Shown here piece after piece: positions 7,201-51,590 of a stretch of 64,000 bases of DNA. Under the pieces are notes generated by a model, which was given only the letters and a program-made list of their open reading frames with translations, did not search any database and had not been told where the DNA came from. Every line of letters begins with the position of its first letter. Within the stretch, counting starts at the first letter, position 1. The DNA comes from a virus: IMG/VR virus record IMGVR_UViG_3300042691_029560, positions 28,714 to 92,713 of that record; one strand, written 5' to 3'. The position numbers were made by a program, and so were the translations under genes.

Positions 7201-9557
7201 TATTGATTTGCCAGTAAGTCGATTTCCGGTGAGTGCCTGTACAGGATTTACAAATAAATCAATCGAGTTTAAATCTGTAGAAGTTGACATAAAGCCAGGG
7301 TCAATAAATTCAGCTCCAGGGACTAAAGCCTTTTTAGCTTTTTCAAAGTCATCTAGTCCCCTACGAGATTCACCAAGTGTAACTACTTTTCCATCACTAA
7401 AAAACTCTCCTCTAAACAATCTAGAAGCTATTAGGGGATTTTTTGAAGTTAAAGAGTCTAGCCCACGGACTACAGATTCTTGATCTTTAGGAACAGGTGT
7501 ACCAGTCCTTAATGCTTTATTTATAGGTATATAAGCTGCACGAGTGCTATATTTTCTAGCAGCACTTGACTCATCTTTTGTAATAACATCTTTTGAAGAT
7601 AAGCCTTTAGACAGATCTGCTGGTGGAGTAAATGTAGATTTTCTAGCTTTAAGTTGTCGCCAATCAAAATCTCCGGACTTCATTTTAAAGAAATCGTTGT
7701 CAGATAGGAAATAGTATCCAGCCTGAATTACGTCAAACGTATCTGCATTTTCTTCATCTTCTTCATCAGCATCTTCATCAAAAATAGATTCGTTTAGACT
7801 AATACGATACAGTCCAGTGTTAGAGTCGGATGGATTTCCGGTTACTTGATCAAGAGTAATTCCTGTAAACTCTGCTTCATCACTTCCAAGAACTTCTTTA
7901 CCGGGTTCTGCATACCTGCTAGTTACTGATCTATTCAAATCCTGAAATCCTAGGGGAAGAGTGTCACTGTCAATAGACACATTAAACTTAGTCTTGTCCC
8001 CACGTTTTAAAGTTTTATTTTCCAGTGTTACTGTTCTGCTACCGTCTGAAGACTCTACAGACTTTCTAGAAGACTCTAATTTTTTATCTTCTTCGGCAGC
8101 TTGCTCACGTAGTTTTTGTCGTAAATCCTCTCTAGCTGCTTGTAATTTTAAAAATTTTGAACTATTTGTATATTCTCTAGTGTCTTCATAAGACACGTAA
8201 TCATCAATTTCAGCACCTTCAAAAGGTTTTTTTGGATCAGCATTAAGCCTTTTTTCTAAAGATTCTTTAGTTACAATTGCATATTCCGGAGCTATTCGCT
8301 CTGCTTCAACAGCTTCCCACCCAATATCATCTCCCTCTTGCATCTCGTATTCTTCTTTAGACAATCCATTTTCATCTAATTCAACAGGGTAGTCGTTATC
8401 TTTAAATTCTTCGGTTCTAAAAATAAATTTATCTTTGTCTTCTTCTTTACCAGTGATGTCAAATAAAGTTACTCCAGTGTACCTAGATGGAAATCTTTCT
8501 AGCCTAGGTTCTTCACCAAAACCAATATCGTCACCGAGATAGTCTGTGAATCCAGTGACTCCCTCAAAATGTTTTTCATAATCATCTAGCCCGGTGCCCG
8601 ACTCATAAGATCTGTCAAGTGGATACCAATCTCCTGGATTAATTTTGTTTCCGGAAGATAGAGTTATAGGAGTGTCTCCAAATACATCTCCCTGTACCTT
8701 GTTAAATCCAGGTTTTCTAGGTTTAGAAAATTTTCCTTCTTTTTGAGCAAAGCCGTCGTAATCAACGGTGTCGAACTCAGCGGTTCTAAGCATGATTTGA
8801 CGTTCAGCTTCTTTAAAAGCTTCACTTGCGTCAATTCCAAGATCTACTTTTTCTTTAGGCTTGTCGCTAAAAGTAGCGGTAAATCTGCCACCCTTTTCCA
8901 AAATGTCGGTGACTAGACCGTTTTCCTCACGAGTCCAACGACTAATGTCTTTTTTAGCGTCTTTCTCTGTAGTAGCATCTACAAACTTACGTTCCGCCGC
9001 TGTTTCATTGAACTTGCCGGCTCTTTCAGATCCAGCTGCTTGTGCAAATCCTTCAGAGTCTTCTGGAAGAAGCTCAGAATCAAAAAATACATCTCTCGGC
9101 AAGATAGTATCTTGATTTTCAGCAATTTTATCTAGCTTTTCTCTAGGAGCTACATATTTTCCGACTCTTCGAAGTTGAGTCTCATTTCCCGGAGAATCTT
9201 GAGAATTTACAATTCTTACTGGGACATACTCGACTCCGGCTTTACGAGCCGCGGCTAGTCTATGGTTACCTTCAGTAATAAATGCTTTACCATTTTTAGG
9301 GTTGAGCACTACTATAATTGGCTCTTTAAAGCCGATGCCTTCTTCTAGATCTTTGGCAATGCTGTCTACCGTACTCTGCTCACGAATCTCATTACCTTCA
9401 GCTCCAATTAGAGCTTTGGTATTTACGTACTGAACTACCGATTTTCCATCAGATTTATAATCTTGTAGGTTAGGATTATACTTTTTACTGTATTCAGCAT
9501 CTACCTCTGTACTAGGTGTCTGTGAGAACCCACGGTCCCCCTTTTCGGGGGTTACGC
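4237..9557 (-). CDS. Polyvalent-protein-like frame: ParB/Srx-like domain, ADP-ribosyltransferase, two ArdC-like (ssDNA-binding + HExxH) domains; probably expressed as a -1 frameshift extension of 9552-19577
   Basis: Frame stays open ~250 nt upstream of the tracked GTG 9309, with no ATG, to the slippery site. ParB motif GFKEPIIV..ITEGNHRLAAA; ART motifs LFRG / GFMSTS / EDEVILPRNSKF; ArdC motifs YSGxN..WM(S/T)xxQA..GE(Q/K)G..VFNAxQ with HELAH and HELVH. Confidence 0.85.
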
Positions 9558-9564
9558 TTTTGGG
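9537..9564 (-). other. Programmed -1 ribosomal frameshift signal
   Basis: In-frame X XXY YYZ heptamer C CCA AAA (9564-9558), spacer GCGTAA containing the 0-frame stop, then hairpin CCCCC-GAAAA-GGGGG (9551-9537); the downstream ORF is in the -1 frame. Confidence 0.85.
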
Positions 9565-12500
9565 GAGTTCGCACCTCTACGCTTTAGAGTATCAATAAGT
9601 CTTTGAATCTCGTCAGCAGACTTGCTGTTCAGGTTCGTGATTCCAAGCTTACGCTTCTCTGCAGAAGTCAGACCAAGAGAGTTAGCCAGATCCTTGACAC
9701 GCTTAAGTTGTCTAGGAGTTGGCTTACCGGTGTCGACGCCAGCCTTAGGGTTTAGAGCCCTAAGTTGTCCAAGCATTGCACCCATCTGAGCCTTAGTCAA
9801 GTTTTTACTTGATAGGGCATCTTGAATTGCAGTAGCTAGTTCTGGATCGATGCCGTCTCTGTTGCCACCAAGTTCCTTGAGGTAGTCATACTGAGCGTCA
9901 GTAGCTGGCTCACCCATCTTAGGTGATACAACTGCGTTGCCAGGTTCTTGAGAAAAGCCGTCAGAATCATCATTAACATCATCATAATAACCTCGGCTGT
10001 TTTCAGCATCTTCATCAACAAGATCGCTGTTGTAGTAGTCTAGCTTTTCATTAGCAAATGCTAGGGCTTCTTCTTTAGAACCAAAAGTCTGAGAACCTTC
10101 GTCATATTGGAATTCTGCATCTTTATCCATGTATTGATACGAGTGATCTACTTCCCACTCACCGTCGCCCTTATACCAGACCTCAATCTGACTGTCAGAG
10201 TAAGGGTCTGTAGTATAACCACCATCGCTGTTTTGACTTAGTTTGTCATCCCTAACTGGAGTGCCTTTTCTGCCAGGTTCTTGGGCGAAACCACCCTGAT
10301 CTTTCTTACGGTTTTTCTTATCTAGAATTCTCTGAGCACGATCTACAAAATCACTAAGAGCATATCTAAACTCATCTGATACTCTAGCATCACCAAAGTC
10401 CTCATAAAGCCTTGCCATTCTATCGATAAACTCTTGCTCAGTACCATTTTCAATAGCTGTTGAAAGTTCTTTCTCTAGATTTGCTTCCGAGAAGTTTTGA
10501 GATAGATTTGAGTTATAGTCAGCTGCTTCGTTAGCTGCCCACTCAATCGCGTCATCGCGGTCATCAAACTCTTGCCTATCATACGCAGAATCTCCGCTAT
10601 CAGAACCATAAGTAATTCTAGCTTCGTACTTACCATTCTCGTTTGGCTCATTGTCAATGTTGATTTCTGCTCCACCGCTTCTGTAGTCTCCCCAGTAACC
10701 ATCATCTGCAGCTTCTGCAATCTTATCGGCATCTGTTGAATAGTAAATTTCTCTAGCAGTAGCCATTTCATCTTCAACGTCAGATAGATCTAAGTTTCTT
10801 AAATCGTCAGGATCTCTAAGAGCTGCTCGTATTCCAGCACGATCTTCAATTCTCTTAATAACTTGATCTCTCAGGTTATCGAGCTCGTCTGCCAAACTAG
10901 AGTCACTAGAATTATCTCTTCTAAGTCTAGATACAACATCTTGAAGATCGGAAGCAAACATGTAAGACTGCTCTACAGCCCAGTCTTTACCATATTTTTT
11001 ATTGTCTGGATTGTCTGGATCTGACTCTGCTAACATTTCTCTCAAGTTGTCGCCGTCTAACATAAGGAAAGTGTCCTCATTTGCAGCGTCAAGTCTTCTT
11101 GCAAGCTCATCAATTCGCTCACCCTTTAGAGAGTTGTAGTAAGCATCCATCTCACCAGCAACTTCGGCAGGTCCGCTTTCTGTAAAGTCGTCACCAGCAC
11201 GGTCGCGGTTGAACTGCTCTTCTCCAGGAATGCCTGGCTCCTGAGCAAAGCCGATAGTCTCTGGACGATCCTTCTTTCTACGAAGCTTGTCGTTTAGAGC
11301 ATCTACTTCAGCACGGTTCATGTTTGGTAGGTTGTCTAGGATGTCCTTGACTTCTTCTGGAGTTAGGTCCTTGGTCACAAGCTTGCTGTTCAATGACTGA
11401 AGAGCACGGTCGCTTGGCTTGTTAGGGTCGACGCCCGGTTTGAACGGAGCATCACGCATAGGGCCAATAAGTGCACTCATCTGTGCCTTAGTTAGGTTCT
11501 TGTTCGCAAGAGCTTCTGTAATTGCCTGAGCAGTTAGGTCGTCAGCTGGAACTCTTTCATCAGCGTACTCTTGTAGAAGAGCATACTGAGCAGGAGTTGC
11601 AGGTTCCATCTGCTTAGCAGACAAACCTCCAGTTTTTTCCTTGTTTTGCTTCTTATTGCCGTCAGCAATCTGCTTACGTAGCCATTTCTCGGCTGCCTCT
11701 GGACTATTGAATGATTTACTAGTAGTATTTCCTAGTCCATTTCTATTTTCAGGATTAGCGTATTTAGCAAACCATCTGTTAGATTCTGTACCGTCTTCAT
11801 TTTTATAGACGCCATACCTAACGTCAGATATGTTACCGTTGGCATCTTTATAAACTACGCCTCCTACTTTATCGACAGACTTAAGATCTAAAGCGTTTGG
11901 GTCCTCTTCTAATAGATCGGAACCGGTTCCTGGTTCTTGGGCGAATCCACCGCTCTTATCTTCACGGAAGAAGTCATAGTCTTCACCATTGTTTAGACCA
12001 ATCGTATCAAACCATTCACCAGGTCCAAAGCCTGATTCTTTGTCTGCTTCTAGGAATAGCTTATAAGCTAGTACTTCACTATGGTAGCGACTAGGTTTTT
12101 CAATAGCTCCCTTAATCTCTCTACCGTTGTACCCATTAGCAACTGCCATATCAGCAATTAAATTGTAATAGCTGTATGGATCACTTTCGGCGAGACCATT
12201 TAGATAATCATCGTTGTAGCTCATAGCATTTTGTACTAGATCGCTAAGTTCTTCATTGTCATAGTCACCAGCAAGTTCAGAAAGTTTTTCCGAATCAAAA
12301 TAACCATCGTCTTCTGCGCCAAGAGCACTTAAAATTTTATTAGCATCTTCTTCGCTCTTTGAGAAAAGATCTTTGTTAATTTTATCTTGCTCGTCCCAGG
12401 CATTCTGTACGTCAGATGCAAGGCCGGCAAGTTCACCATCTTGAGGAAGGTACTTAAATTGCTTAGATCTTGCAGCCCAACCAAATTGAGCTTTTTGTTG

Positions 12501-15500
12501 TTGAAGATCTCGGATTTCATCTCTATTATCAGATTTATCAATTTTACCCTGAAGAATATCTTCAGCTTCTTTGACAGCTCGATTTACTTTATCACGTATT
12601 GGCTTATTAGCTGCTTTAGGAGTAAAATCAATTCTACCCTTTGGATAGTTTGTCCAAGCATAGTTTTTAGCTGGCTCTTCGCCACCAGGACGTTGAGCAA
12701 AGCCTTCACCTTCAGAGCCAAAACCAATCTCGTTTAGCCAGTGATCATTGTTCTGATCCTCAGCCCAGGTGTTCATTTCTGCGTCAAGAACATAGTCATG
12801 ATAGTTATAAGGTTTCTCAATCATACGTTTGAACTCAGATGGGCTTGCATTTATAGCTTCAGCAGCATTCGCAATTTTGTAGAAGTATTCAGCAGGATTT
12901 GTACGAGCTAAATTGTCTAGGTAGTTTTCATTTAGCTCTTTAATTTCCTGAGCAGCTTCGTAGTCTTCATCATCCTCGTCTAGACCGCCGTCTTCAATAA
13001 AAGCATACTTCTCAACAAGTCTCTTAGCTAGAGCTTTGTTCTTTGCTCTAACTTCTGGGCTTGGTCCGTTTCCAGGTGCTTGACCAAAGCCTCCGTAATC
13101 AAGATCGGCAGCGTAATCCTCTGCGTCCTGATTTACTTCCATACTGTTGTAGTAATTAAGTTTTTCGTTAGCAAATGCTAGAGCTTCTCCCTTAGTGTCG
13201 AAGGTCTTAGAGCCTTCGTCAAACGGCAACTCTCCTCTAGATTTGTCCATGTGAATGAACTGGTGGTTTACTTCCCACTTACCGTCATTGGTAGGGTTGA
13301 CTTCAATTTGACCTGGCTCACCAAAAGTAGTGCTAAGAGAACCGTCGTCACTCGTAATCAATTTGGAATTGTTTATAGGAGTATATTTTCTGCCAGGTTC
13401 TTGAGCGAAACCTCCGGACTCAAGATCAGCGGCGGCATCTTCTGCATCTGAGAATACCTTGTCACCGTTGTAGTAGTCTAGTTTTTCGTTAGCAAATACA
13501 AGAGCTTGCTTTATAGAATCAAACTTCTGAGAACCTTCGTCAAATGCAAACTCATTTCCAGAGCGTGCCATGTGGTTGTACGCGTGGCTTACTTCCCATT
13601 TACCGTCATCAGTAGGGTTGACTTCAATTTGCTTGTTAGAAGTTGGACTAGTACTGTAACCACGATTGCTAGTTGGCTGTAACACTTCTGGTTTGCCAGT
13701 TGCTTGAGCGAAGCCAGCTGCAGGAGATTCTCCGTTAGCGTCTCTAAGAGCTCGATCAATAGCCTCAACAGCGTCTTGTTTAGCCTTAAGTGGGTCACCA
13801 AACCCTAAGTTAGCTTTATCAATGTCTTCGATTGCTTGTCTAATTTCATCTTCGTAGTCTGGAACAATGTCTACAGGCTTACCATCGAAGGTGACCACAA
13901 GGAAATTACCGTCAGGATCTCCTTCTACGACTACCTTTAGGCGTCCGTCTGCAGAAGTAAAGTTTCCGCTTCTATCCCAGAGATCAGGATTGTCAGCTGC
14001 CTTACGGTCAATCTTAGGAGTGTAGCTAATTGAAAGATCTGCACTCTTGCCAACCTCAGCAAGAAGCTTGCCCATCTCGCCTTTGGTTAGGGCCTTGTTA
14101 GCAACGGCTTCTTCAACCATATCGCGAACGTCGGTTGGAAGTTTTTCACCTTGGTTATCTAAGATACCCTGAAGCTTGTTGTACTGTAGGGAGCTAGCTG
14201 GGTCTTTAGTCCAGGCTGGTGGCTCGTCGCCAGGTTCTTGAGCAAAACCGCCCATCTCGTCTGGAGACTTTCTAGCGTTTCCTTCAAGTTCTGAGAACAG
14301 ACGTTCGCCGTCTTCAAGTGCCTTGTCTAGATTATCTGTAGGTTCACCCTGGCCCATAATTTCACCATTACGGTTGTAGGCGATAGGGGTAATCATACCC
14401 TTGTCTTTTTCTAGACGTACAATTCCACCATCTTCTGTTTCTGCAGTAGCAGCAAAGAAAATATCACTATCTGGATATAGAAGGAATTTTCCGCGTTTAT
14501 TTGAAGACTCACCAGGCTTTTGATCAAATCCACCGGTTTGCTTCTTTAGGAATTTGTCAACTAAAACACCTACGTCTTTTGCTAGGTCTGCTGAATCGTA
14601 GCCCCAACCAATGTAAGGAAGCTCACCAACCCATTCGCCATCGTAAGATACAGAAATACGAGATAGGTTTGTACCACCAAATCCCATGTCTGGTTCTCCA
14701 TCTGCCATTGACTCAAGAGTCAATCTTCCATCTGGAGACTTGTAGGTAGCGTCATTACCGCCTTCAGGATCTCCGAACCAGTGGCTTAGGTTGGCAATGT
14801 GAGCCTCGTCAACTCCACCAGCTTGGCCGGCTGATTGGGAGAATCCTTCGATATCATCGGTTCTTTCACCGTACTTGATATTCGGTCCGCCTCTAAGAAG
14901 TTCTTTAAGATCCGAAACAATTTCTTCTGCTTCTCTTTCAACACCTTCAGGCTCCATGTCTGGGTATCGAGAACTATCGTCAACTAAAACAAAATTCTGT
15001 ACGTAGCCAATTGGTTTTCCATCATAACTAACTTCCCAGTCTCCACCTTCTACATAGGCAGAAGCAGCTCCTTTATTGGTTTCATAGTCATAATCACCAG
15101 ATTTGTCTACATATTTTATTTCAAGTTTTCCGTCCTTAGACTTCCACTCGTCTCTAAAATCAAAACTACTGTCAAGTTCACCAGAATAGTCTTTGGCTAA
15201 GTTACGTCGCTTAGGACTGCTATTAAGGTGCTTTGAGATTACATTCTCAATTTCATCAGCATAGTCGTCAATATCCATGAGCTCGATTGGTTGAGAGTAT
15301 GGTCTATCGATGTATCTAACAGGCTGTCCATCTTCTAGATCTATAGTATATTTTTCCCCATCAACAGATACTTCTAGATAAGATGTATCGACTGCAGGAT
15401 CATCTGCATAATAGCCAGCATCAGCGTCTCGGACGTAAGTAATCTTAATTCTTCCATCTCTAGAAACCCAGGTACGGTCCTTAAATGCTTCGGCAGACCA

Positions 15501-18500
15501 GTTGGCGTCTTTAAATGCGTCTACTGGAAGCTTATATTTTAGAGGCTCATCTTCTCCAGGCGCTTGAGCAAAACCTTCAATGTCATCTTGACCAGGAAGA
15601 TCTGCTAGAGAAATGTCATTTGCAGCCTTTTCTGCTGCACCAATGCTCTTGAAGTTTGATGACGCACCTAGTTCGCCACCATCCTGAGAAATTGGAGTTA
15701 CGTCCCAGGTACCATCGCCCTTAGGTGTGTAACGCATCATCAAACCTTCAGAGTTTTTCTTCAATAGGTTTGGACTTGCGTCTTCCCAGCCGTTGGTGTC
15801 TGGCATACCCTTTAGACGAGTAATGAGATCTGAAGCTTCATCCTTGGTCATCTTTGGAAGACGCTTGCTTAGATCAGCGGCTTCTTTAGCAGGAAGACCC
15901 TTAGAAATTAGACCACGGCGGATAGACGCTAGTTGTCTATCTGAAGGTACGTTGGTGTCAACGGCCTTTCGCATCTCACCAATTACGGCACCAATTTCGC
16001 CCTTAGTTGCTTCTTTGTTTGCAAGAATATCTTGCATAGACTTACGAAGTTCTTCTGGAAGTTTGTCACCCTGCTTTTCTAGGATGTTAGCTACGAATCC
16101 ACGCTGGGCATCGGTTGCTGGGTCAGAAGATTTTCCACCCGGTTCTTGACTGAAACCAGGCATTTGATCATAACCTTCAAAGCCATCAACGTCATAGTAA
16201 TCCCGATCATTTGATTTAGCTTGAGCGTTACCAAAAGCTTCGTCAAGCGCACCTATTTTTCCGTCTTCACCTTCACCATAGTTTTTAGGGTCATAGCCAT
16301 CACTAAACTCGCGCTCTTTGTCACCACCAAATGGACTTTTAACGAGACTACCACCTACAACATCAACAGTACCGTCGGAATACTGAGTTATCTCAGCTGA
16401 ACCGGCGTCACCTTCGTAGAACCAAACACGTTTTCCTGCTGCTTTATCGGATTCAGACGTTATTTCTTTGAAGTCTTTTCCGTAAGCCTTAACAAGATCG
16501 TCAACGGTATTAATTTCTGGTTCATTGCCAGGTGCTTGATAGAAGCCATCTCTTTCCCAGTCTTCAGGACCCTCTGGTGGCTCTGGTGGATCGTAGTCAC
16601 TCTCTCCAGCACCAAATATACCTGCAATATCGTCCATGGAAGAGCCCAAAGGAAGTGACTCATAACTAGTGTCTACATCTTGACTAGGTGGCTCATCCCA
16701 GCCTCCAGGATTGTATTTACCGGCAGTATATTGAGTTAATTCGGCTGCTCCACCAGGATAAATTTCTAGTTCTGCGTACTTGTAGTTATCTTCACTACCT
16801 AATGTTAGAAATATCACACCATCATCATCAGGGAATACATCTCCTGAATACCCGTATTCCTCTGCAAGATTTTTAATAGCAGCTAACTCTTCATCAGAAT
16901 AAAAAGAACTCTCAGAAGACCCATTTTCATAGTCGTCATATTTTTTAAGTTGAGCAGCGATTACATCGTGGTACTTAGCGTATTCAGGGTCCTCTAGCAA
17001 AGATTTCATTGCTTCTGCATCTAAATCCTTGAAAGACGTAAATACTTTAGCTTTTAATCCACGGTTGTACTTAATTTGCTCAATTTTGGCCTCGCGAGCC
17101 TTTTTTACATCTGACTTAAGTGGTTCTAAGCCATCTTTTTCACGTTTTTTATTTTTTGGAAATGCAAAGATTCCTTCTATATCATTCTGGGATCTTAAGT
17201 TATAACCATACTCACTGCTTAAAACACCAACACCAATGGTGTCTCCACTGTAGTACCTTTTACCAGCATTTTCTCCTTCGGTAATATTTATTTCAAAATT
17301 ACTCGGGTTAGGATTATTTTCTTGTCCACTCCAAGGCGTATATACAATCTCGTGGCCATAAGCTGACCATTTTCTAATGCCTTTGGCAGCATCTTCGGGG
17401 GTGGTAACTTCTACTGCATCATACTTTTTTGCAAAATCGTCAAGATTAATATTCTCCCCACCAGGTGCTTGATCATAGCCATAAAAATCGCGATTGTCGC
17501 GATCCTCGTCGTATGTGTCTGGCTCATCATCAGAATTATCGTAGTTTTCATAACCCTCATCCATCAGTCCAGCTAAGTCGTCTAAGCTAGAACCGGCTGG
17601 AATACTATTTCCATCACTTCTAACGTCAGCATCTGCTGGGCTATCCCAGGATGCTGCATAACGCTTTGCAACATAAAAGTTTTCTAGGTCTGCGGATCCA
17701 TCTGCACGTACAATTAGCTCAGCCCATGCGTCTCCAGCGTCATCGCCTTTTACTAGAGATATATATGGTTCTTCTCCTAAATATTCACCTCTAGGTAAGC
17801 CGTAACCAAACTCATCCATTAATTTTTGAATATCCTCGAGTTCTTTATTTGTCCAGTACGGGCTATCAGCTTCCCCTGCTTCATATGCCTTTGCTTTTTC
17901 TAACTGCTTACTAGCATAATCATGATGTGCCGCATATTCAGGATTGTCGAGTACTGACTGGATCTGCTCAATAGATCCAGTATTAATTCCACGATATGCG
18001 CGAATTTCAGCTACATCTTTAGGGGATATTCTTTGAGCTTTTGATACGAGCTCTTCCGCATTTGCAATTGCACGATCTTTTAGTTCGGTGCTTTCATATG
18101 CTGCGTTTTTCTTGTTTTCCAGATTTTTTTGTAGTGCTTCTACGTCGCCAAATCGAACAGCTTTTTGTCGATCGTAATATGATTCAAAATTATTGTAGAA
18201 TTTAGGATCACCGTATTCAAAAACACCATAGTCGTACTCTTTCTCACCAGGAGCTTGCTCGAAGCCTTCATTATTTTCTAATAGATCCTTAGGAGATAGT
18301 TTTTTATTTCTGCCAGGTTCTTGAGCGAAGCCCTTAGCTGGCTGCTGTTTGCGTAGACGTGCTTTTGCTTTTGGAGCCTTACCCTTACCAGAGTCATTAT
18401 CTGCGGCAAGCTTTTGAAGGTTTGCCCATTCCTGAGCGTAGCCAACAAAATCTCCAAATTCATCTGACAAAGAAAGTACAGGTTTGTTTGAATCATATGA

Positions 18501-19577
18501 GCCATCAGGACCAGCACCAATAAATTTTGAGCCCGAAGGTGCTTGCTCGCCGGATGGAAGAGTTGAAACAGAGTAGCCGTCTGCAGACGTAAAGGTGCCA
18601 TCACCATTGTCAGTCCAACCAGTTGGAGCAGACTTGCGGTTTGCTAGAAGTTCTTGTAGTGGAATTGCGTAACGTGAGTTTTTAGAGTCTGCCTTAAATG
18701 CTGGAGCTTCTCCAGTTCTAAGAATAGCTTTTAGACCTTCTACCTTAGATGCAGGAACAGAATAGATACCTGATGGAAGATCGGCTCCTCCTCCAGAAAT
18801 TTCAACTTCAATCCTGTCGCTGTCTTGTGGGTTACCAGCAAACTTACCAACGAACGACTTAATCATGTCGCCAATCATGGCAAATATACGAGATCCACCA
18901 CCCATCTCAGCAAATCGACCCTTACGGTCACGACGTTGCAACTTGGCACGTGCAGAACGTGCTGCTGAAGAGTTATTTCCAGCGAATGGGTTTCCGATAC
19001 CAAAAGCAGCGGTAATTGCTTGAATCTTAATGTCTGCTGGAACAGAAGCAGTTAGTGCCTCTAGACGTGCAGCAGCGTAGATGCTCTTGCTACTTCTTGG
19101 CTGTTGAACAAATGCCTCAAAGACTGCTTTACGTACAGACTCGTCAGTGATGCGTGGGTCGTAGGAAACCCAAGCAGCATTACGGACGCGACGTGCAGAT
19201 GCAGTAATCGGGCCAACGGTTTTTGTTGAGTACGGGTGAGCACTAGGGAGTAGGTCCCTAAACTCTACTACCGGAGCTTTATTGGAAGCCGGACCGTCGA
19301 TAGCGTAGTCAACAAAATTGGTTACTTCACGCGCAGCGTGGAAGAAAATGTCTCGAGGGTCTTCGATGTCTAGTTTGCTTGCAATGTAACGATCTGTGTA
19401 GTTAAGAACGTCTTTTAGTGCTACTTGTCTTACCGAGGCAACTAACGCGTTTCTTTCAACAACGTAGTTTATAACGCCTCTCTTAAAGATCTGCTCACTC
19501 TCGGTGACAGTTATTTCTAGATCTTTTTCACTTAAGCTCTCTAGAGCAGCAACTAGGGGATTCAAATTTTCACTCAC
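9552..19577 (-). CDS. Giant acidic modular protein (3341 aa), probable internal head/ejection polyprotein
   Basis: Lies between portal/Dps and the protease; 18 G[FY]xQxPG-type motifs separate internally duplicated modules; N-terminal DLLPxxHP and RRDRKGRF motifs. Confidence 0.8.
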   Translation of the reverse strand: MSENLNPLVAALESLSEKDLEITVTESEQIFKRGVINYVVERNALVASVRQVALKDVLNYTDRYIASKLDIEDPRDIFFHAAREVTNFVDYAIDGPASNKAPVVEFRDLLPSAHPYSTKTVGPITASARRVRNAAWVSYDPRITDESVRKAVFEAFVQQPRSSKSIYAAARLEALTASVPADIKIQAITAAFGIGNPFAGNNSSAARSARAKLQRRDRKGRFAEMGGGSRIFAMIGDMIKSFVGKFAGNPQDSDRIEVEISGGGADLPSGIYSVPASKVEGLKAILRTGEAPAFKADSKNSRYAIPLQELLANRKSAPTGWTDNGDGTFTSADGYSVSTLPSGEQAPSGSKFIGAGPDGSYDSNKPVLSLSDEFGDFVGYAQEWANLQKLAADNDSGKGKAPKAKARLRKQQPAKGFAQEPGRNKKLSPKDLLENNEGFEQAPGEKEYDYGVFEYGDPKFYNNFESYYDRQKAVRFGDVEALQKNLENKKNAAYESTELKDRAIANAEELVSKAQRISPKDVAEIRAYRGINTGSIEQIQSVLDNPEYAAHHDYASKQLEKAKAYEAGEADSPYWTNKELEDIQKLMDEFGYGLPRGEYLGEEPYISLVKGDDAGDAWAELIVRADGSADLENFYVAKRYAASWDSPADADVRSDGNSIPAGSSLDDLAGLMDEGYENYDNSDDEPDTYDEDRDNRDFYGYDQAPGGENINLDDFAKKYDAVEVTTPEDAAKGIRKWSAYGHEIVYTPWSGQENNPNPSNFEINITEGENAGKRYYSGDTIGVGVLSSEYGYNLRSQNDIEGIFAFPKNKKREKDGLEPLKSDVKKAREAKIEQIKYNRGLKAKVFTSFKDLDAEAMKSLLEDPEYAKYHDVIAAQLKKYDDYENGSSESSFYSDEELAAIKNLAEEYGYSGDVFPDDDGVIFLTLGSEDNYKYAELEIYPGGAAELTQYTAGKYNPGGWDEPPSQDVDTSYESLPLGSSMDDIAGIFGAGESDYDPPEPPEGPEDWERDGFYQAPGNEPEINTVDDLVKAYGKDFKEITSESDKAAGKRVWFYEGDAGSAEITQYSDGTVDVVGGSLVKSPFGGDKEREFSDGYDPKNYGEGEDGKIGALDEAFGNAQAKSNDRDYYDVDGFEGYDQMPGFSQEPGGKSSDPATDAQRGFVANILEKQGDKLPEELRKSMQDILANKEATKGEIGAVIGEMRKAVDTNVPSDRQLASIRRGLISKGLPAKEAADLSKRLPKMTKDEASDLITRLKGMPDTNGWEDASPNLLKKNSEGLMMRYTPKGDGTWDVTPISQDGGELGASSNFKSIGAAEKAANDISLADLPGQDDIEGFAQAPGEDEPLKYKLPVDAFKDANWSAEAFKDRTWVSRDGRIKITYVRDADAGYYADDPAVDTSYLEVSVDGEKYTIDLEDGQPVRYIDRPYSQPIELMDIDDYADEIENVISKHLNSSPKRRNLAKDYSGELDSSFDFRDEWKSKDGKLEIKYVDKSGDYDYETNKGAASAYVEGGDWEVSYDGKPIGYVQNFVLVDDSSRYPDMEPEGVEREAEEIVSDLKELLRGGPNIKYGERTDDIEGFSQSAGQAGGVDEAHIANLSHWFGDPEGGNDATYKSPDGRLTLESMADGEPDMGFGGTNLSRISVSYDGEWVGELPYIGWGYDSADLAKDVGVLVDKFLKKQTGGFDQKPGESSNKRGKFLLYPDSDIFFAATAETEDGGIVRLEKDKGMITPIAYNRNGEIMGQGEPTDNLDKALEDGERLFSELEGNARKSPDEMGGFAQEPGDEPPAWTKDPASSLQYNKLQGILDNQGEKLPTDVRDMVEEAVANKALTKGEMGKLLAEVGKSADLSISYTPKIDRKAADNPDLWDRSGNFTSADGRLKVVVEGDPDGNFLVVTFDGKPVDIVPDYEDEIRQAIEDIDKANLGFGDPLKAKQDAVEAIDRALRDANGESPAAGFAQATGKPEVLQPTSNRGYSTSPTSNKQIEVNPTDDGKWEVSHAYNHMARSGNEFAFDEGSQKFDSIKQALVFANEKLDYYNGDKVFSDAEDAAADLESGGFAQEPGRKYTPINNSKLITSDDGSLSTTFGEPGQIEVNPTNDGKWEVNHQFIHMDKSRGELPFDEGSKTFDTKGEALAFANEKLNYYNSMEVNQDAEDYAADLDYGGFGQAPGNGPSPEVRAKNKALAKRLVEKYAFIEDGGLDEDDEDYEAAQEIKELNENYLDNLARTNPAEYFYKIANAAEAINASPSEFKRMIEKPYNYHDYVLDAEMNTWAEDQNNDHWLNEIGFGSEGEGFAQRPGGEEPAKNYAWTNYPKGRIDFTPKAANKPIRDKVNRAVKEAEDILQGKIDKSDNRDEIRDLQQQKAQFGWAARSKQFKYLPQDGELAGLASDVQNAWDEQDKINKDLFSKSEEDANKILSALGAEDDGYFDSEKLSELAGDYDNEELSDLVQNAMSYNDDYLNGLAESDPYSYYNLIADMAVANGYNGREIKGAIEKPSRYHSEVLAYKLFLEADKESGFGPGEWFDTIGLNNGEDYDFFREDKSGGFAQEPGTGSDLLEEDPNALDLKSVDKVGGVVYKDANGNISDVRYGVYKNEDGTESNRWFAKYANPENRNGLGNTTSKSFNSPEAAEKWLRKQIADGNKKQNKEKTGGLSAKQMEPATPAQYALLQEYADERVPADDLTAQAITEALANKNLTKAQMSALIGPMRDAPFKPGVDPNKPSDRALQSLNSKLVTKDLTPEEVKDILDNLPNMNRAEVDALNDKLRRKKDRPETIGFAQEPGIPGEEQFNRDRAGDDFTESGPAEVAGEMDAYYNSLKGERIDELARRLDAANEDTFLMLDGDNLREMLAESDPDNPDNKKYGKDWAVEQSYMFASDLQDVVSRLRRDNSSDSSLADELDNLRDQVIKRIEDRAGIRAALRDPDDLRNLDLSDVEDEMATAREIYYSTDADKIAEAADDGYWGDYRSGGAEINIDNEPNENGKYEARITYGSDSGDSAYDRQEFDDRDDAIEWAANEAADYNSNLSQNFSEANLEKELSTAIENGTEQEFIDRMARLYEDFGDARVSDEFRYALSDFVDRAQRILDKKNRKKDQGGFAQEPGRKGTPVRDDKLSQNSDGGYTTDPYSDSQIEVWYKGDGEWEVDHSYQYMDKDAEFQYDEGSQTFGSKEEALAFANEKLDYYNSDLVDEDAENSRGYYDDVNDDSDGFSQEPGNAVVSPKMGEPATDAQYDYLKELGGNRDGIDPELATAIQDALSSKNLTKAQMGAMLGQLRALNPKAGVDTGKPTPRQLKRVKDLANSLGLTSAEKRKLGITNLNSKSADEIQRLIDTLKRRGANSPKA

Positions 19578-23993: not shown

Positions 23994-24083
23994 CCAACTA
24001 CAAACCTGACCAAGCCAAGCAAGTCATTTGGATACAAACAAAGCAACCCAAGCAAGTAGCATAACTTCCAACAGACTTCTAAC

Positions 24084-24392
24084 GAGCTGAGCTACGAGCT
24101 GAGCTACAAGCTAGCTATGAGCTGAGCTAGCTCAAAGCTACGAGCTGAGCTACGAGCTGAGCTACAAACTTCTAACGAGCTGAGCTGAGCTATGGGCTAG
24201 CTACTAGCTACGAGCTGAGCTTAGCTGAGCTATGAGCTACTAGCTATGAGCTGAGCTACGAGCTACAAGCTACGAGCTATGAGCTACTAGCTATGAGCTG
24301 AGCTACGAGCCGAGCTGAGCTACGAGCTGAGCTGAGCTATGAGCTAGCTACTAGCTATGAGCTGAGCTGAGCTGAGCTACGAGCTAAGCTAG
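24084..24392. repeat. Irregular tandem array of GAGCT / GAGCTAC / TAGCTAT units
   Basis: Dozens of AGCT-centred units, non-coding. Confidence 0.95.
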
Positions 24393-24631
24393 CAAACTAT
24401 CACCGCATCAACTTACAAAGTTCTATGGTGAAGCAGTAGTGATTAGTAATGACTAACAAACTTATTCCTGTCCGTCTAAACAACACATACGGATCCAAAT
24501 GATAATAAAGCAATGATCAAATAAGCAAAGGCAAATAAATAATTGATCAACAATGATCACAAAGAGAGATCGTGATCAGCGATCATAAATAATGATCAAA
24601 CCAATACAAATAACGATCCGTATGTCCGTGT

Positions 24632-24793
24632 ATGAGCTGAGCTATGAGCTGAGCTATCCAGCTATCCGTATGAGCTGAGCTATCAACTTATAATGAGCTG
24701 AGCTATCCGTATGAGCTGAGCTATCAACTTATAATGAGCTGAGCTATCCGTATGAGCTGAGCTATGAGCTACAAGCTGAGCTGAGCTATCCGT
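24632..24793. repeat. Second AGCT array including a duplicated ~41-bp unit
   Basis: TATCCGTATGAGCTGAGCTATCAACTTATAATGAGCTGAGC repeated. Confidence 0.9.
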
Positions 24794-24794
24794 A

Positions 24795-24839
24795 TAAATA
24801 AATAATCCCCTATCAAGTTGATAAGGGATTATTTATTTA
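24795..24839. terminator. Bidirectional-type hairpin terminator
   Basis: TAAATAAATAATCCC...GGGATTATTTATTTA inverted repeat just downstream of 24848-25186. Confidence 0.7.
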
Positions 24840-27178: not shown

Positions 27179-27742
27179 TTACTCTTGGTCAATAATAACC
27201 CTGTTCTTATCTAGGATAGCAGAATACACTTGGCTCTTACCTGTCGTTTCTGTCTTATACCCGTATCTAGCAAGACGGAAACGAATAGCCCCGTGAGTAA
27301 TCCCTAGCAACTTGGCTAAGCGATACACCGAAACTCCTTCTACTTCTACTGCCTTGTTTAGCAGATACGAGTATTCTTCGGCTTCCCTGCGATACTTCTT
27401 GCTATGAGAACGAACCTGTTGGGCTAGTGGTTGTAGTTCCACTAGGCGACTAAGCGTTTCATTACTAGGCAAGATAATAACTCTTGTAGATTTCACTACT
27501 TCGGGGGCGATAGGTGGTGTTGGTAGTGGAAACTCAACTGCCTTATCGGTATCAACGCTAGATTTGGCGATTTGCCTTGCTCTCTCTCTTGTAATCTCAA
27601 ACGCAACGCCAATGCTCTCAAATGTCCAACCTAGACCCCTTAGAGCCTTTACATAGGCATCTCTAAGTTCTCTATCGGTGATACTTCTAGCAGTAGCGAC
27701 TACTTCTTCGGGGATTTGGTGATTTTGCTTCACATAAGACAT
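27179..27742 (-). CDS. Double-HTH DNA-binding protein
   Basis: GWTFESIGVAFEITRERARQI (sigma region 4-like) and VSVYRLAKLLGITHGAIRFRL. Confidence 0.7.
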   Translation of the reverse strand: MSYVKQNHQIPEEVVATARSITDRELRDAYVKALRGLGWTFESIGVAFEITRERARQIAKSSVDTDKAVEFPLPTPPIAPEVVKSTRVIILPSNETLSRLVELQPLAQQVRSHSKKYRREAEEYSYLLNKAVEVEGVSVYRLAKLLGITHGAIRFRLARYGYKTETTGKSQVYSAILDKNRVIIDQE

Positions 27743-27850: not shown

Positions 27851-28387
27851 CTATAAGACTACTCTTACATTAGGATCATTAGCAAAGATCAGCTCAAATG
27901 TCTCGGCGTTGATCACGCCATCTCCCACTAGGCCACGATCAGCCTGGAACTGAGCGATCGCTGATTTAGTTACATCTCCGTAATACCCGTCTTTATCTTT
28001 CAGGGCTACAACATAACCAAGTTCATACAATCTTCGTTGTAAGTGGTGGATCGTTAGCGACTTGCGATTGTAGATGTTCTTGTAGATACACTTGTCCAAG
28101 AACACTTCATCAACTACGCCTAGTCCAACCACAGCTGGCCCTGCCGGGACAACTTCTTCTTGCTTGATAGGTGGAGCCGGAGTTGGAACCATACCACCAT
28201 CCGTGATCTCAATAACCGGAGCGATCTTTACCGGAATAGGATCTGGATCTACAACCGGCTCTTCTACCGGATCTACGACAGGTTCTTCTACCGGATCTTG
28301 ATCAACAACCGGCTCTTGATCTACAACAAGATCATTAGTTAGATCCGGATCTTTATTTTCTTTATTATTTGCCACTGATTTCTCCAA
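27851..28387 (-). CDS. Peptidoglycan-binding domain protein with acidic/Pro-rich N-terminal repeats
   Basis: LQRRLYELGY..DGYYGDVTKSAIAQFQADRGLVGDGVIN; PVVD/PVEE repeats. Confidence 0.8.
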   Translation of the reverse strand: MEKSVANNKENKDPDLTNDLVVDQEPVVDQDPVEEPVVDPVEEPVVDPDPIPVKIAPVIEITDGGMVPTPAPPIKQEEVVPAGPAVVGLGVVDEVFLDKCIYKNIYNRKSLTIHHLQRRLYELGYVVALKDKDGYYGDVTKSAIAQFQADRGLVGDGVINAETFELIFANDPNVRVVL

Positions 28388-34093: not shown

Positions 34094-36012
34094 TTAGATA
34101 CTCCACGCACCAAAGTCGGTATCGGCAGCGATACGCCTAGCGTTCATCCACGCACTTTCTCCATAAAAGTATGTGACTTTCTTGGTGACTTTGTTTCTAA
34201 CTTTCCAATAGTCTTGCTCGAATACCGCAGTTCCATAACTAACTTCCACTAGGTCGCTGTTATAAGCAACTGTCCATTCTTTCACTAGACTTACGCTTGG
34301 CTTAGCCATTTAGTTTCCTTTCGGTTGATTATCGATAATCTGTGTAAATAGTTTATTGACTACCCTGTCCATATGGCAAGGGTCGCATAGAAAAGATTCG
34401 CTCGGTAAAAGCTCCGTTCGGCAGTCTAAACAGGTTCGCACTATTTCAGCGCCTTTCTAGTCTTTCTTAGCGATACCAATTCCTTTACATCGCTAATGCC
34501 GATATTGTCTAAGGCAGATACAACTTTGTAAGCAATTTCTAATGACTTGTGTTCGGTTGAGATAGGGGCTAATACTTTGGTCGCAACTTTGGCAACAATC
34601 TTGGCAGTAATAATTTCGGCTAGCATTTATTTCCTTTCGTAGAATTACAGACTACATTACACCTAAGACATTTCGCAACATTTCACCAAACTAAATTGGA
34701 TCGTGTTGTAGAGATCTCTAAGCTTGGTGAGCAGATAGGCTACGGCCTATCTGTCGAAAACAGTATCTAAAAACTCTTGCTTTGTATAGACAACTTCTCG
34801 ATAGACAACATTTCCGTCGTCAGCAGAAATAATAATTGCTTCATTGTCGTCAGCGAAAAATCGGTTCTCTCCCACGCTAATACCGAAACTTAGGTTTCCG
34901 TCATAGTTAGCCCGTGTAGAAAACTCATAGAAAAGTTGAGCAGTTAGATAAGCAGGGTCGCCAATTCTATCTGTTCTCGATAAAACATCTACTACGGCAA
35001 GCACATTATCTGTTCCTGACCAGTGGCCGTAAAGGTGGATAGGTTCGATAAAGTCTTTGCTTGTTACAATAATTCTTGACCTGTCGCCCATTTGGATTTC
35101 CTTTCATTCGGGACACTAAAAGACTACACCTAACCTAAGACATTCGCAAGCGTGTCGCAAGCCGGCCGGAGCTGGATCAAAAAGTTGTCCCCCGTTAGGC
35201 GCTAACATAACGGGGGACTAATTTGGTCGTACACCTAAGCAGTTGTTGTGAACATTATTAAGTTATTTATACTTAGATGTTTGTCGCGGTTGCGACTAGA
35301 AAACTCTACCAAAAATTTTATTTATCGGCAAGCTTAGAGATCTTATGAATAAACCCCCGGTGTATTTCAACCGGGGGTTTACCAGAATTATTTATTCTGG
35401 CAATTCATCCATAACTTGAATTGTGAACAGCAACCCATTCTTCAATTCTGTTTTGGTTGGCATTCTTCCAAACTCTTCTTGGAATGTTTCAATCACTTGG
35501 TCAACAGCGTGTCCAATAATGTCTGCTGGGGTATCTCCCCAAACTCCGGTAACTTCTTCTTCAGGAACTTCCCTAAAGATAATTGAGTTTGAACCTTGCA
35601 TTCTCCAATAACCCATTTTGATTTCCTTTCGTTAGGTTATGTATAAACTCTACACCATACCCCAGACATTTCAAGTATTTATTTACAGATCTCTAAACAG
35701 CTTCGGTAAAGACTAACCCCCGATAAACTATCGGGGGTTAGGTAAGGTCTAAACAGATTAGGCGATTTGGTTCTGCCAATACTCTCTAATCTTTGCGATT
35801 TCTTTCGCTTCTGCTTCTTTCTGCTCTCTCATTTCTGCTTCGTGAGCATTACAGACAATAGTAGCCATTAGGTCAATAGCGAAAGGGCTAGCCATTTTAT
35901 CGGTAAGAATATAGTCAATCTGCTTTACCAAACTCTCGATTTCGTAAACTGCCTTTGGCTGAACTGAGTAGTGTGAAGCGATTGCCATTACTAGTTTCTC
36001 TTTTAGTTCCAT
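34094..36012 (-). CDS. Separate small cassette ORFs (34094-34309, 34441-34626, 34747-35091, 35392-35616, 35758-36012), hypothetical
   Basis: Each has a GAAAGGAAA RBS; most have their own promoter and hairpin terminator. Confidence 0.7.
35096..35170 (-). promoter_or_regulatory. Representative cassette promoter
   Basis: Sense strand GACACGC-TTGCGA-ATGTCTTAGGTTAGGTG(17)-TAGTCT...GAAAGGAAA; the same layout recurs upstream of many cassettes. Confidence 0.75.
35184..35297 (-). ncRNA. Candidate ~115-nt small RNA
   Basis: TTGCCG-N17-TAGAGT promoter, two hairpins, GC terminator, no RBS or ORF. Confidence 0.4.
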
Positions 36013-36192
36013 GCTCGGTGTTTCCTTTCCGTAGTTTCTGGCTTTCTGCCATTACCTAAATACTAGCATACCCATACGGAAACTTGTCAAGGTTTTTATA
36101 AATATTTTTTGGCGTGTCTATTGGATCAGGATCAAGTTAGCATCCGGATCAAGATCTGAACCGGCCGGTGATCCGTGAAGCTGGCCAGAAAC

Positions 36193-36412
36193 AACAAACC
36201 CCCTGCGTCTCCGCAAGGGGTTATGTAGTGAATAGGTGGATTGCGTTTTACCACCAGTGCCTAGTCAATTCGGTTCTCATAGATCCGCTTTTGAGCACAC
36301 CCGCCCTTTACCCGCTAAGGTGAACCGCTAAGTTCAGGCGTTGCCTTGTCTGACCCATTTGACGTTTCAGACTATTCAGCCATACTCCAAGTTTCCTGTC
36401 GGAACCTTGTTA
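36193..36412 (-). ncRNA. Candidate ~220-nt structured RNA
   Basis: TTGCGG-N17-TACTAT promoter, multiple stems, terminator CCCCTTGCGGAGACGCAGGGGG-TTTG, no cassette-type RBS. Confidence 0.5.
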
Positions 36413-36671
36413 TCTCAATAGTATATGAAACAGGCATTTACCGCAAATCAAGACACGCTAATTTGATAACAAATTTATAACGGATCTGCAGCCCTGATCA
36501 GCTTCGGATCTAGCCTGGTAGATCCGGCTAGGATCTCAGCTTAGGATCCAGCTCAGCTGCTCCGGAGGATCCGGCCGGCCAGGATCATTGGACAGATCTA
36601 AATTTAGCTTCCCCCCGATCCATAAAGTAAACCCCTAGTACTTTGTACTAGGGGTTACTTCGGCAGATTAC

Positions 36672-37043
36672 TTATTCGCCACGCTTACGGGACATCAACA
36701 TCCCGAGCATTCCAACCATAGCCAACCAGTCCAGTCCTTCATTGGTAAGTCCAGTTGGTTCACCTTCGGCAGTAATGCCACCAGTAAATACGATAGTTCC
36801 AGCGATAGGGTGTGGATTTTCCAAACAATCAAACGCAACAGCGTAAGCGATAGTTCCAACAGGGTTGATTGGTAAGTTGTGGATTAGTCCTTCTTCATTG
36901 ACCCACATAGTTACCATAGGGTTTAGTCTAACCATTTCCACATAGCCACCAACTTTGTCCTTCATAACTTCATACCAGTCGGTAGATAGTTGTAGTTCGG
37001 TTGGTTCTAGTTCGGTGTTTGTTACAACTGCTAAGTTACTCAT
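36672..37043 (-). CDS. DUF3846-like protein
   Basis: VGGYVEMV..MWVNEEGLIHNLPINP..IAGTIVFTG. Confidence 0.75.
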   Translation of the reverse strand: MSNLAVVTNTELEPTELQLSTDWYEVMKDKVGGYVEMVRLNPMVTMWVNEEGLIHNLPINPVGTIAYAVAFDCLENPHPIAGTIVFTGGITAEGEPTGLTNEGLDWLAMVGMLGMLMSRKRGE

Positions 37044-50196: not shown

Positions 50197-51590
50197 TTGA
50201 TTTCCTTTCGTTAGCCGTAGTAAGAGTTTAGCGAAGTTATTATCTCAACGCAAGTTTATCGAGCTAAATTTTTACTCGCCGTCGTCGTCTTGATCAGATA
50301 GACAAGTGCAATCAGCCGGGTATCGCTCTAAACAGATCTCGCACTGAGTTCCGCAGGCCACACATAAGCAGTTCAGCTCCATCACCGGCTCCTATTCTTC
50401 TAACTTCCCACCGAGCATCGAGTAAACAATTGAATACGCATCCATCGCGCCTTCAAGATAACTAGCAGTATCATCATCGCCTTCTTCAAGAGCAGTAAGC
50501 GATAGTTCTTCCATCTCGTCAATCCGGATTTCACAGAACTCTTTTAGTTCTTCGGGTGTAGCAGGGAGCATTACGCCCCCTGCCCGAACTCGTCAGGTCT
50601 TCCAATGAAGTTCCAAGTGATAGTGTCGTCATCTTCTTCCACCTTTTCCCACATTTCAGCAATGTTGTCGTCAATGGCGATTTGGACAAACTTGGCGAGT
50701 TCCACGCCATCAGGGTTGCCAATTTTCTTGCTAATCTCAACGCAGAGTTCAGCGAGCATAGCCATTGGTGGAGTTGATAACTTCTTGCCAGCGTGGTCGC
50801 TTAGCACAAACAGAACACTAGCAACTAGGGTAGCAAGAACTTCTGCCCCATCATCAGTATTCCTGACCAACTCAATAGGGTTGGTGAATTCATCGTTCTC
50901 GTGGTCGTGGTTCGGGTTATCGCACATAGGGTTTCCTTTCGTAGAGTGCTTACATAGCGATTATGCCACAGCCCTACGACATTTCGCAACACATTTCACG
51001 AAATTCCCATAAATAAATTTATCGTTATAAATTCTGATCCACCGGAGTTTATCGAAGCTAATACTGTTTCCGGAAAGTTTCGATCTCCGGAAAGCCGCCT
51101 AGACATCTGACGAGTCCGTCAGAAGTTCTTACCACCCCCCGAACCTACCGGTTTCATGATTGTTCCTGGATCTCCGGAAAGCTCAGCTCAGCTTGATCCA
51201 GGATCACCCGTTCCTGGTGGCATATCTTTTAACAAGCTAGCGGTTAGCTTCGTCAGATGTTACCCCCTCACCGATACACTGCAGCTTTCTACGGTTGCAG
51301 CTACAGCACTCCGTTAGAAGTTACCTTCCCTTTCAGATCTCCGGTCCCCAGGTAACAGGCACTGACCCGTTAGCTCGTTAGCTTCTCACCAACGTCAGCG
51401 GTTAAAGATCTCTACATCTAACCTAACCCTGACCCTGACCTAGGGCACGCGGTTATTTGATCCACGCTTAGGGCTCGCCGCTTTTTGTTTTCGAAGCTTA
51501 GGCTCGCCGATAAAAAATTTCCCCACCGGGCACTTCATAAACGAAAGGAAAGGAAGTGATAGTGCCCGGTAGGGAAACTTGGCGGTTAGT

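Follow-up and report, generated by a model that had tools for sequence, protein, structure and literature searches.

Clusters of GATC that are read by Dam and SeqA occur in oriC of E. coli, in pac of phage P1 and at sites upstream of the lambda promoter pR. In cyanobacteria, the palindromic 8-mer HIP1 (GCGATCGC) is found far above expectation and is spread through genes genome-wide (PMC5861425). Phages are known to lose restriction sites, at times only in the DNA that enters the cell first, and 4-bp palindromes are removed from the whole leading region in the first-step-transfer DNA of T5 and BF23 (PMC10644984) and in Autographiviridae (PMC12455610). The T4-type phages RB49 and phi1 possess a hyperplastic early region of small genes, mostly of unknown function, each lying between a strong, conserved sigma-70-like promoter and a stem-loop terminator, and these PeSL cassettes move between contexts (Arbiol et al. 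2010, PMC2839356, in the sections used here). manA RNAs have been described as 5'-UTR elements and putative cis-regulators of cyanophages and gamma-proteobacteria (PMC2864571), and according to a 2026 preprint they form RNA cages (10.64898/2026.07.01.735769).

The locus described here is a 141-bp gap between early genes of an uncultured virus, located at positions 36481-36621 of the window (i.e., the whole stretch of 64,000 nucleotides that was analyzed) and packed with four words, GATC, AGCT, CCGG and GGCC. It resembles the Dam/SeqA clusters in having many GATC in a short non-coding stretch beside a promoter, but differs from them in that no Dam-family gene was found, helical phasing is missing (the distances from one GATC to the next range over 4-45 bp and do not peak at 10-11 bp or its multiples) and AGCT and CCGG are co-enriched; actinobacteria, to our knowledge, lack SeqA. 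As with HIP1, a short palindrome lies far above expectation, but here the 4-mers are excluded from genes and confined to gaps upstream of promoters. As in T5, BF23 and Autographiviridae, 4-bp palindromes are depleted in early and not in late DNA (the region being set apart here by early and late genes, not by order of entry), but in the gaps three or four of the words reach a tenfold concentration. The PeSL arrangement is matched by strong sigma-70-type promoters and stem-loop terminators between small early ORFs, most of them of unknown function, and by the mobility of one unit, that of a manA-like RNA; the spacers packed over 30-140 bp and the exclusion of the words from the units are differences, as the PeSL sections used here describe a promoter and a stem-loop and make no mention of a word-rich spacer. 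A single molecule loses the words from about 40 early units and concentrates them in the adjoining gaps, a partition of which no published account was found in the literature searched.

The window represents bases 28714-92713 of a 92.7-kb uncultured-virus record (G000). Complete relatives are about 135-137 kb in size, which indicates that roughly one third of the G000 genome, about 45 kb, is missing from the record. Nearly every gene of the window lies on the minus strand. The window includes genes for the portal and the large terminase; no tRNAs were found in it. Judged by the portal protein, the nearest cultured relatives are Actinomycetia phage DSL-LC01 (73%), which is the closest, and large Microbacterium and Arthrobacter phages, and the host is probably actinobacterial. 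A megablast search of the phage database yielded no close cultured relative. IMG/VR contains 460 relatives of the terminase, and metagenomes of lakes and fresh water from 16 studies contain DNA of the phage. Three genomes figure in the comparisons below: the sister phage G001 (81 kb available, incomplete, collinear with G000, terminase 94% identical, DNA about 70-85% identical), which was the only close relative used for the comparison of orthologous gaps; the complete clade-mate G002 (137.5 kb, terminase 88%); and the complete sister genome G004 (135 kb, loci L221-L227), which is free of the sites. Two giant proteins of 1690 aa (4237-9309, minus strand) and 3341 aa (9552-19577, minus strand) adjoin the portal gene. 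The former combines ADP-ribosyltransferase, ArdC-N and zincin-peptidase (MPTase-PolyVal) domains, a mix which suggests an injected polyvalent anti-defence protein.

The stretch contains 10 GATC, 5 AGCT, 4 CCGG, 2 GGCC, 2 CCWGG and 2 CTAG; the high site density reported in the initial annotation was borne out, all five of its counts being exact. The four words together account for 21 sites in the 141 bp and cover 54% of the bases, and the GC content is 0.57 vs about 0.43 for the genome. Given a window mean of 0.77 GATC per 141 bp, the Poisson probability of 10 or more is 1e-8 (about 5e-6 allowing for 454 windows), and no 141-bp segment in 60 first-order Markov simulations of the window had more than 6 GATC (mean maximum 4.05) or more than 11 four-word sites. 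The absence of an ORF was likewise confirmed, the longest stop-to-stop frame being 38 aa with no start-bearing ORF of 30 aa or more, as was the lack of a dominant hairpin (RNA fold z-score -0.76; just two short palindromes). No conserved peptide or RNA that would explain the composition was found within 36481-36621, where no RNA family matched; at gathering scores, Rfam yielded no match in the whole window. The statement that the stretch is not a tandem repeat largely holds, although TRF still finds a 12-bp unit (2.8 copies, 82% match, score 43). This unit covers 33 of the 141 bp, and an identity as tandem repeat or microsatellite, which calls for head-to-tail copies of one unit, was rejected. 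A repeat search returned imperfect direct repeats of 10-30 nt in two to three copies. The only motifs recurring inside the stretch are RGATCY and AGCT-N0-2-GATC, which in part form AGCT-N0-2-GATCY units repeated roughly every 12 bp. In contigs of four lake runs (2017-2025), substitutions were found in the flanks but neither a substitution nor an indel inside the stretch; in the low-depth run X19 contigs break inside it (36534-36733).

All features around the stretch are read on the minus strand. The early gene upstream (36672-37043, 123 aa, phrog_3777) holds none of the four words, and no usable relatives of it were found. It is followed by an intrinsic terminator (36630-36656) with a 12-bp stem and a T-rich tail, and then by the word-packed spacer. 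Beyond the spacer, an A/T-rich UP-like tract (36460-36481) and an ACACGC box in inverted orientation (36452-36459), which together immediately precede the -35, were assigned by analogy with other early promoters, and a promoter was predicted by consensus at 36420-36446, with TTGCGG (36446-36441), a 15-nt spacer and TATACT (36425-36420); the corresponding promoter in G001 has an identical geometry. The structured RNA gene at 36219-36412, which begins 70 bp downstream of the stretch, ends in a predicted intrinsic terminator (36197-36222). There follow a second spacer of similar type (36121-36190; 5 GATC, 1 AGCT, 3 CCGG and 2 GGCC; partly alignable with G001), the standard early promoter module of the next gene (36060-36117), comprising the ACACGCC box (36117-36111), an A-tract, TTGACA (36090-36085) and TAGTAT (36065-36060), and the next early gene itself (35758-36012, 84 aa), which has no family match and none of the four words. 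With a terminator on one side (36656-36630) and the RNA-gene promoter on the other, the stretch is the gap before a free-standing RNA gene, and it is predicted to be untranscribed DNA between cassettes. Two further regions had been called similar to it: the second spacer is a good match, with 11 sites in its 70 bp (15.7 per 100 bp), and 51030-51420 does bear the words, but more weakly, with 23 sites over 391 bp (5.9 per 100 bp).

The RNA gene, an ORF-less unit of about 195 nt, matches the Rfam manA model (RF01745) over its full length with 51.2 bits (E 3.4e-12); because the gathering score is 55.2, the gene is called manA-like and not manA. Among four homologues, compensatory changes were observed in 21 of the 58 pairs, and 97.4% of the cells were paired, vs 27-48% when the partners were slid as a control; a conserved multi-stem structure is strongly supported by these values. 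The homologues come from three other phage contigs, at different genomic positions. Counting related phages and the same lakes, the cassette occurs in at least four different genomic contexts, and it is absent from the complete genome G002. With a promoter and a terminator of its own, and with a separate promoter for the next gene, the RNA is not placed in a 5' UTR.

The stretch is the largest of about 40 word-packed gaps between early genes of G000. These genes, about 40 in number, form autonomous cassettes of common architecture, in the order terminator, gap rich in CCGG, AGCT and GATC, ACACGCC box, A/T tract, TTGCGA, about 17 nt, TATAAT and the ribosome site GAAAGGA, with the promoter module conserved in about 18 listed units per genome. 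In the window from 29000 to 62000 the ACACGCC box is situated 15-25 nt upstream of the early -35 (e.g., 36111-36117, 41895 and 44635), and in both G000 and G001 a GATC is found 3-16 nt upstream of the box. Among the 136 strand-symmetric 4-mers, GATC, AGCT and CCGG rank as the top three in intergenic over-representation (2.3-3.1 times expectation), independently in G000 and in G001. Taking the ORF plus 75 nt upstream as an early unit, the four words occur in G000 at 2.9 per kb in 38 early units and at 28.9 per kb between them (29-51 kb of the window; binomial p 6e-62), and in G001 at 4.5 vs 35.2 per kb (p 2e-68). Most early ORFs contain no four-word site at all. Compared with synonymous-codon shuffles, the early ORFs are poor in GATC (28 observed, 74 expected), AGCT (31 and 81), TTAA (12 and 67) and GTAC (13 and 50); in the late ORFs GATC (256 and 196) and AGCT (347 and 353) are tolerated. 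Almost all 4-bp palindromes are depleted in the early but not in the late ORFs, and the same is true of G001. The gaps are not free of restriction avoidance either, since the 12 other 4-bp palindromes are strongly depleted there (about 21 per kb vs a composition-based estimate of about 50 per kb). Gaps between late genes lack the four words, which shows that the packing is not a general behavior of filler DNA.

The words also hold fixed places. In 43 units of G000 and 40 of G001, anchored at the ribosome site, they lie between -160 and -60, with CCGG distal and GATC proximal, and hardly any occur between -60 and +100. As in an operator array, the words have a fixed place and orientation with respect to the promoter, and AGCT-N0-12-AGATCT is oriented toward the promoter in a ratio of 12:3 in G000 and 12:4 in G001. 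This oriented arrangement points to a function linked to promoters. The 8-mer AGAGATCT is intergenic in 28 of 29 copies in G000 and 17 of 18 in G001, and CCGGCCGG in 11 of 11; genome-wide both form discrete boxes, which differs from the recurrences inside the stretch itself. A pattern scan of viral contigs for AGAGATCT-N-ACACGCC returned single chance matches only.

Over about 125 bp, the orthologous gap of G001 holds 8 GATC, 7 AGCT and 4 CCGG. No alignment of this gap with the stretch is possible, whereas the adjoining end of the gene, the RNA gene and its promoter do align, so that the conserved site density without conserved linear sequence that the initial annotation anticipated in related phages is indeed present. 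Across 24 orthologous gaps of the two genomes the word counts correlate with r=0.95. As density is kept and alignment is lost, it is the words that persist rather than the linear sequence. Within orthologous gaps 46% of the words are kept in place, vs 27% of other 4-mers; in a non-orthologous control the values are 18% and 5%, so part of the excess is alignment bias. By our own arithmetic the bias-adjusted expectation is about 37%, and the remaining excess conservation of individual words, as estimated from these alignments, appears modest.

In G002, which has ACACGCC promoters, GATC, AGCT and CCGG are neither lost nor packed; its early ORFs contain 101 GATC (92 expected) and 148 AGCT (140 expected). 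Loss from the units and packing in the gaps go together, and both were seen in two genomes only, G000 and G001, of one sub-lineage. More distant members of the clade (L125-L136) also have the ACACGCC box, and aGATCt often stands at the corresponding place. Sister phages that are free of the sites do not have the box. Among these, 22 more distant sister loci (347 kb, e.g., L150, L152, L160 and L180) contain not a single GATC or AGCT, and G004 contains no GATC, AGCT, GCGC or ACGT; CCGG and GGCC are very scarce in all of them. This elimination indicates that strong selection of the restriction type acts on GATC and AGCT in the hosts which the family infects. The site-free genomes (G004 and the 22 sister loci) encode N6_N4-type methylases. 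Apart from unrelated GC-rich contigs, no word packing was found at the other loci examined. In DSL-LC01 (locus L003, OQ999401.1), a different and highly conserved early promoter of its own (…ctaaagatgTTATAATagaatca… then acgacGAAAGGAca) precedes dozens of small genes, and the gaps there are not packed with words. An origin of the word-poor cassettes by import from site-free sisters was also considered and rejected, as the best matches of the early ORFs were site-free in 7 cases and site-tolerant in 12, with none in 29, and all were of low identity.

Neither the 92.7 kb of G000 nor the 81 kb of G001, both incomplete, encodes a domain of the C5, D12 or N4/N6 methylases (PF00145, PF02086 and PF01555), and no methylase was found in the 5.3 kb (L235) and about 2 kb (L236) available beyond the contig end. 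The complete G002 has no methylase of these three families. PF02086 is also absent from five relatives, so that an enzyme of the Dam/SeqA type was not found in these phage genomes, of which G000 and G001 are incomplete. Small proteins common to G000 and G001 and absent from G002 include no DNA-binding, nuclease or methylase family, with the exception of a probable small-terminase HTH (27179-27742).

Any explanation has to cover the loss of the words from early units, their packing upstream of early promoters, the indifference of the late genes and the restriction of all this to one sub-lineage. The reading we prefer, tentatively and with somewhat less than even confidence, is that the stretch, placed before an early promoter, is a multimerized platform for protein docking or insulation. 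Nearly all early promoters have a spacer of this lineage-specific kind in front of them, and the stretch is the largest copy; the basic module may be read toward the gene as terminator, CCGG(CCGG), AGCT, (AGA)GATC(TCT) or GATCYAA, ACACGCC box, A/T tract, -35, -10 and GAAAGGA, with the AGCT and GATC boxes apparently multiplied about tenfold in 36481-36621. We infer protein binding, the nature of the reader and an effect on transcription from this layout: the words would be recognition cores for sequence-specific DNA-binding (or DNA-modifying) proteins in early infection, and proteins docked upstream of the promoters might activate the units or insulate them from each other. The same proteins bound inside a transcription unit would block RNA polymerase, and such a roadblock would explain why the words have been swept out of the early units. 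Several observations do not fit easily. A reader was not found among the phage proteins searched; GATC has neither consistent flanks nor phasing, and adjacent sites commonly follow each other at 5-8 bp, which leaves too little room for dimers to bind independently; to read four different words, several proteins, or ones of the restriction-modification type, would be required; and the stretch contains RGATCY but not the AGAGATCTCT box. Furthermore, GATC and AGCT are the very words that the sisters have eliminated completely, a link to restriction which a plain transcription-factor model does not predict, and the modest conservation of individual words after bias correction and the occurrence in two genomes only also count against it. 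If the words are docking or modification sites, they would make up a new kind of promoter-upstream element built of 4-bp palindromes, and this would be a clear case of site avoidance due to transcription and not to DNA cleavage.

Two readings that take the link to restriction as their starting point are each considered unlikely. In the first, words of the restriction-modification systems of the host population would be removed from the early units, displayed in clusters between them and read there by proteins of the restriction-modification type, thereby insulating the early cassettes and shutting these down after the DNA has replicated. The readers might be a multispecific phage methylase encoded in the unsequenced third of the genome, or host methylases and nucleases that bind without cutting, and the partition would then act as an epigenetic or roadblock device.

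In the second, which we regard as no more probable than the first, the gaps would be methylation targets: the phage (in its missing third) or the host would methylate the four words, and the clusters would mark parental vs new DNA and so time or shut down early transcription. GATC, AGCT, CCGG and GGCC all contain C and are known targets of C5 methylases, and a set of this kind is what 4-bp-specific restriction-modification enzymes read. That sisters drop GATC and AGCT wholly, and CCGG and GGCC nearly so, implies that enzymes for these words exist in the host population. The lack of flank preference around GATC, the tolerance of late genes for the four words, and the coincidence of no methylase of the three families and no packing in G002 are in keeping with methylation. 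It is opposed by the failure to find C5, N4/N6 or D12 methylases in G000, in G001 and in the 5.3 kb beyond the contig end, and by the consideration that fully methylated DNA would need no loss of words from its early units; we know of no methyl-reading factor here. If either restriction or methylation is involved, the layout would tie host defence repertoires to phage gene regulation, and the abundance of the phage family in lakes opens the question to methylome and metatranscriptome data.

Non-adaptive growth of simple DNA appears rather improbable. Self-complementary words would expand by slippage or by break-and-repair wherever indels are tolerated, and the stretch would be the longest such expansion. 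Micro-repeats of the expected kind do exist, namely the 12-bp unit in the stretch, (CCGG)2 at eleven places, (GATCA)n in G001 and a (GAGCT)n satellite at 24.1-24.8 kb; the failure of orthologous gaps to align and the only modestly greater conservation of words than of their neighbors also agree with it. Left unexplained are the loss of words from early units, which only the packing lineage shows, the unpacked state of the late intergenic DNA, the AGCT-AGATCT order and the positional profile, and no variation in length was seen in four populations over 8 years. Scars of fill-in repair at cut GATC sites were tried as a specific source and rejected, as GATCGATC occurs three times in G000 and twice in G001, close to chance spacing by estimate.

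A role of the gaps as recombination linkers is distinctly doubtful. Any two word-rich gaps would supply microhomology for the shuffling, loss or capture of promoter-gene-terminator cassettes, as in the PeSL precedent (PMC2839356, in the sections used here), and the autonomy of each early gene, the several contexts of the manA-like RNA cassette and the absence of sister homologues for 29 of 48 early ORFs, which indicates a high turnover, all suit such shuffling. The conserved promoter and terminator, however, already provide longer homology, the loss of words from the units is given no reason, and recombinant joints were not seen in the contigs.

The initial annotation suggested a decoy role. 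Host restriction enzymes would be attracted to the gaps, or permitted to cut there as at sacrificial break-points, and each early unit would remain intact and expressible; this we judge very improbable. The words are indeed of restriction type and eliminated from sister phages, and early units, unlike late genes, are nearly free of 4-bp palindromes, as expected of DNA that is injected first (PMC12455610, PMC10644984). But a cut anywhere breaks the genome, and some 40 fragments with identical ends cannot rejoin in order; there is no mechanism by which cleavable sites would protect. Site-free units need no decoy, sites in the first-injected DNA of T5 and BF23 render these phages sensitive (PMC10644984), the words are oriented to promoters, and the depletion of the 12 other palindromes in the gaps implies that cutting there is not harmless.

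An origin of replication or a packaging site, whether of the Dam/SeqA or of the iteron type, is extremely improbable, for the superficial resemblance of a GATC cluster, an A/T-rich tract and a non-coding RNA to oriC, P1 pac and RNA-primed origins is outweighed by the presence of about 40 such gaps, the lack of a turn in cumulative GC skew, of phasing and of any Dam-family enzyme found, and the existence of a better candidate at 24.1-24.8 kb.

That region (24082-24796), between the terminase and portal genes, is a non-coding satellite of GAGCT type (TRF periods 5, 7, 12, 23 and 41) flanking an A/T-rich core (24491-24610) with 9 GATC, mostly TGATCA, and is a candidate origin or packaging site. 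It is present in G001 and appears to be absent from G002, where the corresponding 10-kb stretch has no excess of AGCT. Not every GATC cluster in the window is spacer DNA: a second cluster of 10 GATC (28221-28350) is coding and falls where a gene at 27851-28387 (minus strand) is repetitive, with repeats of 24 and 18 bp; the protein of this gene also has a peptidoglycan-binding domain.
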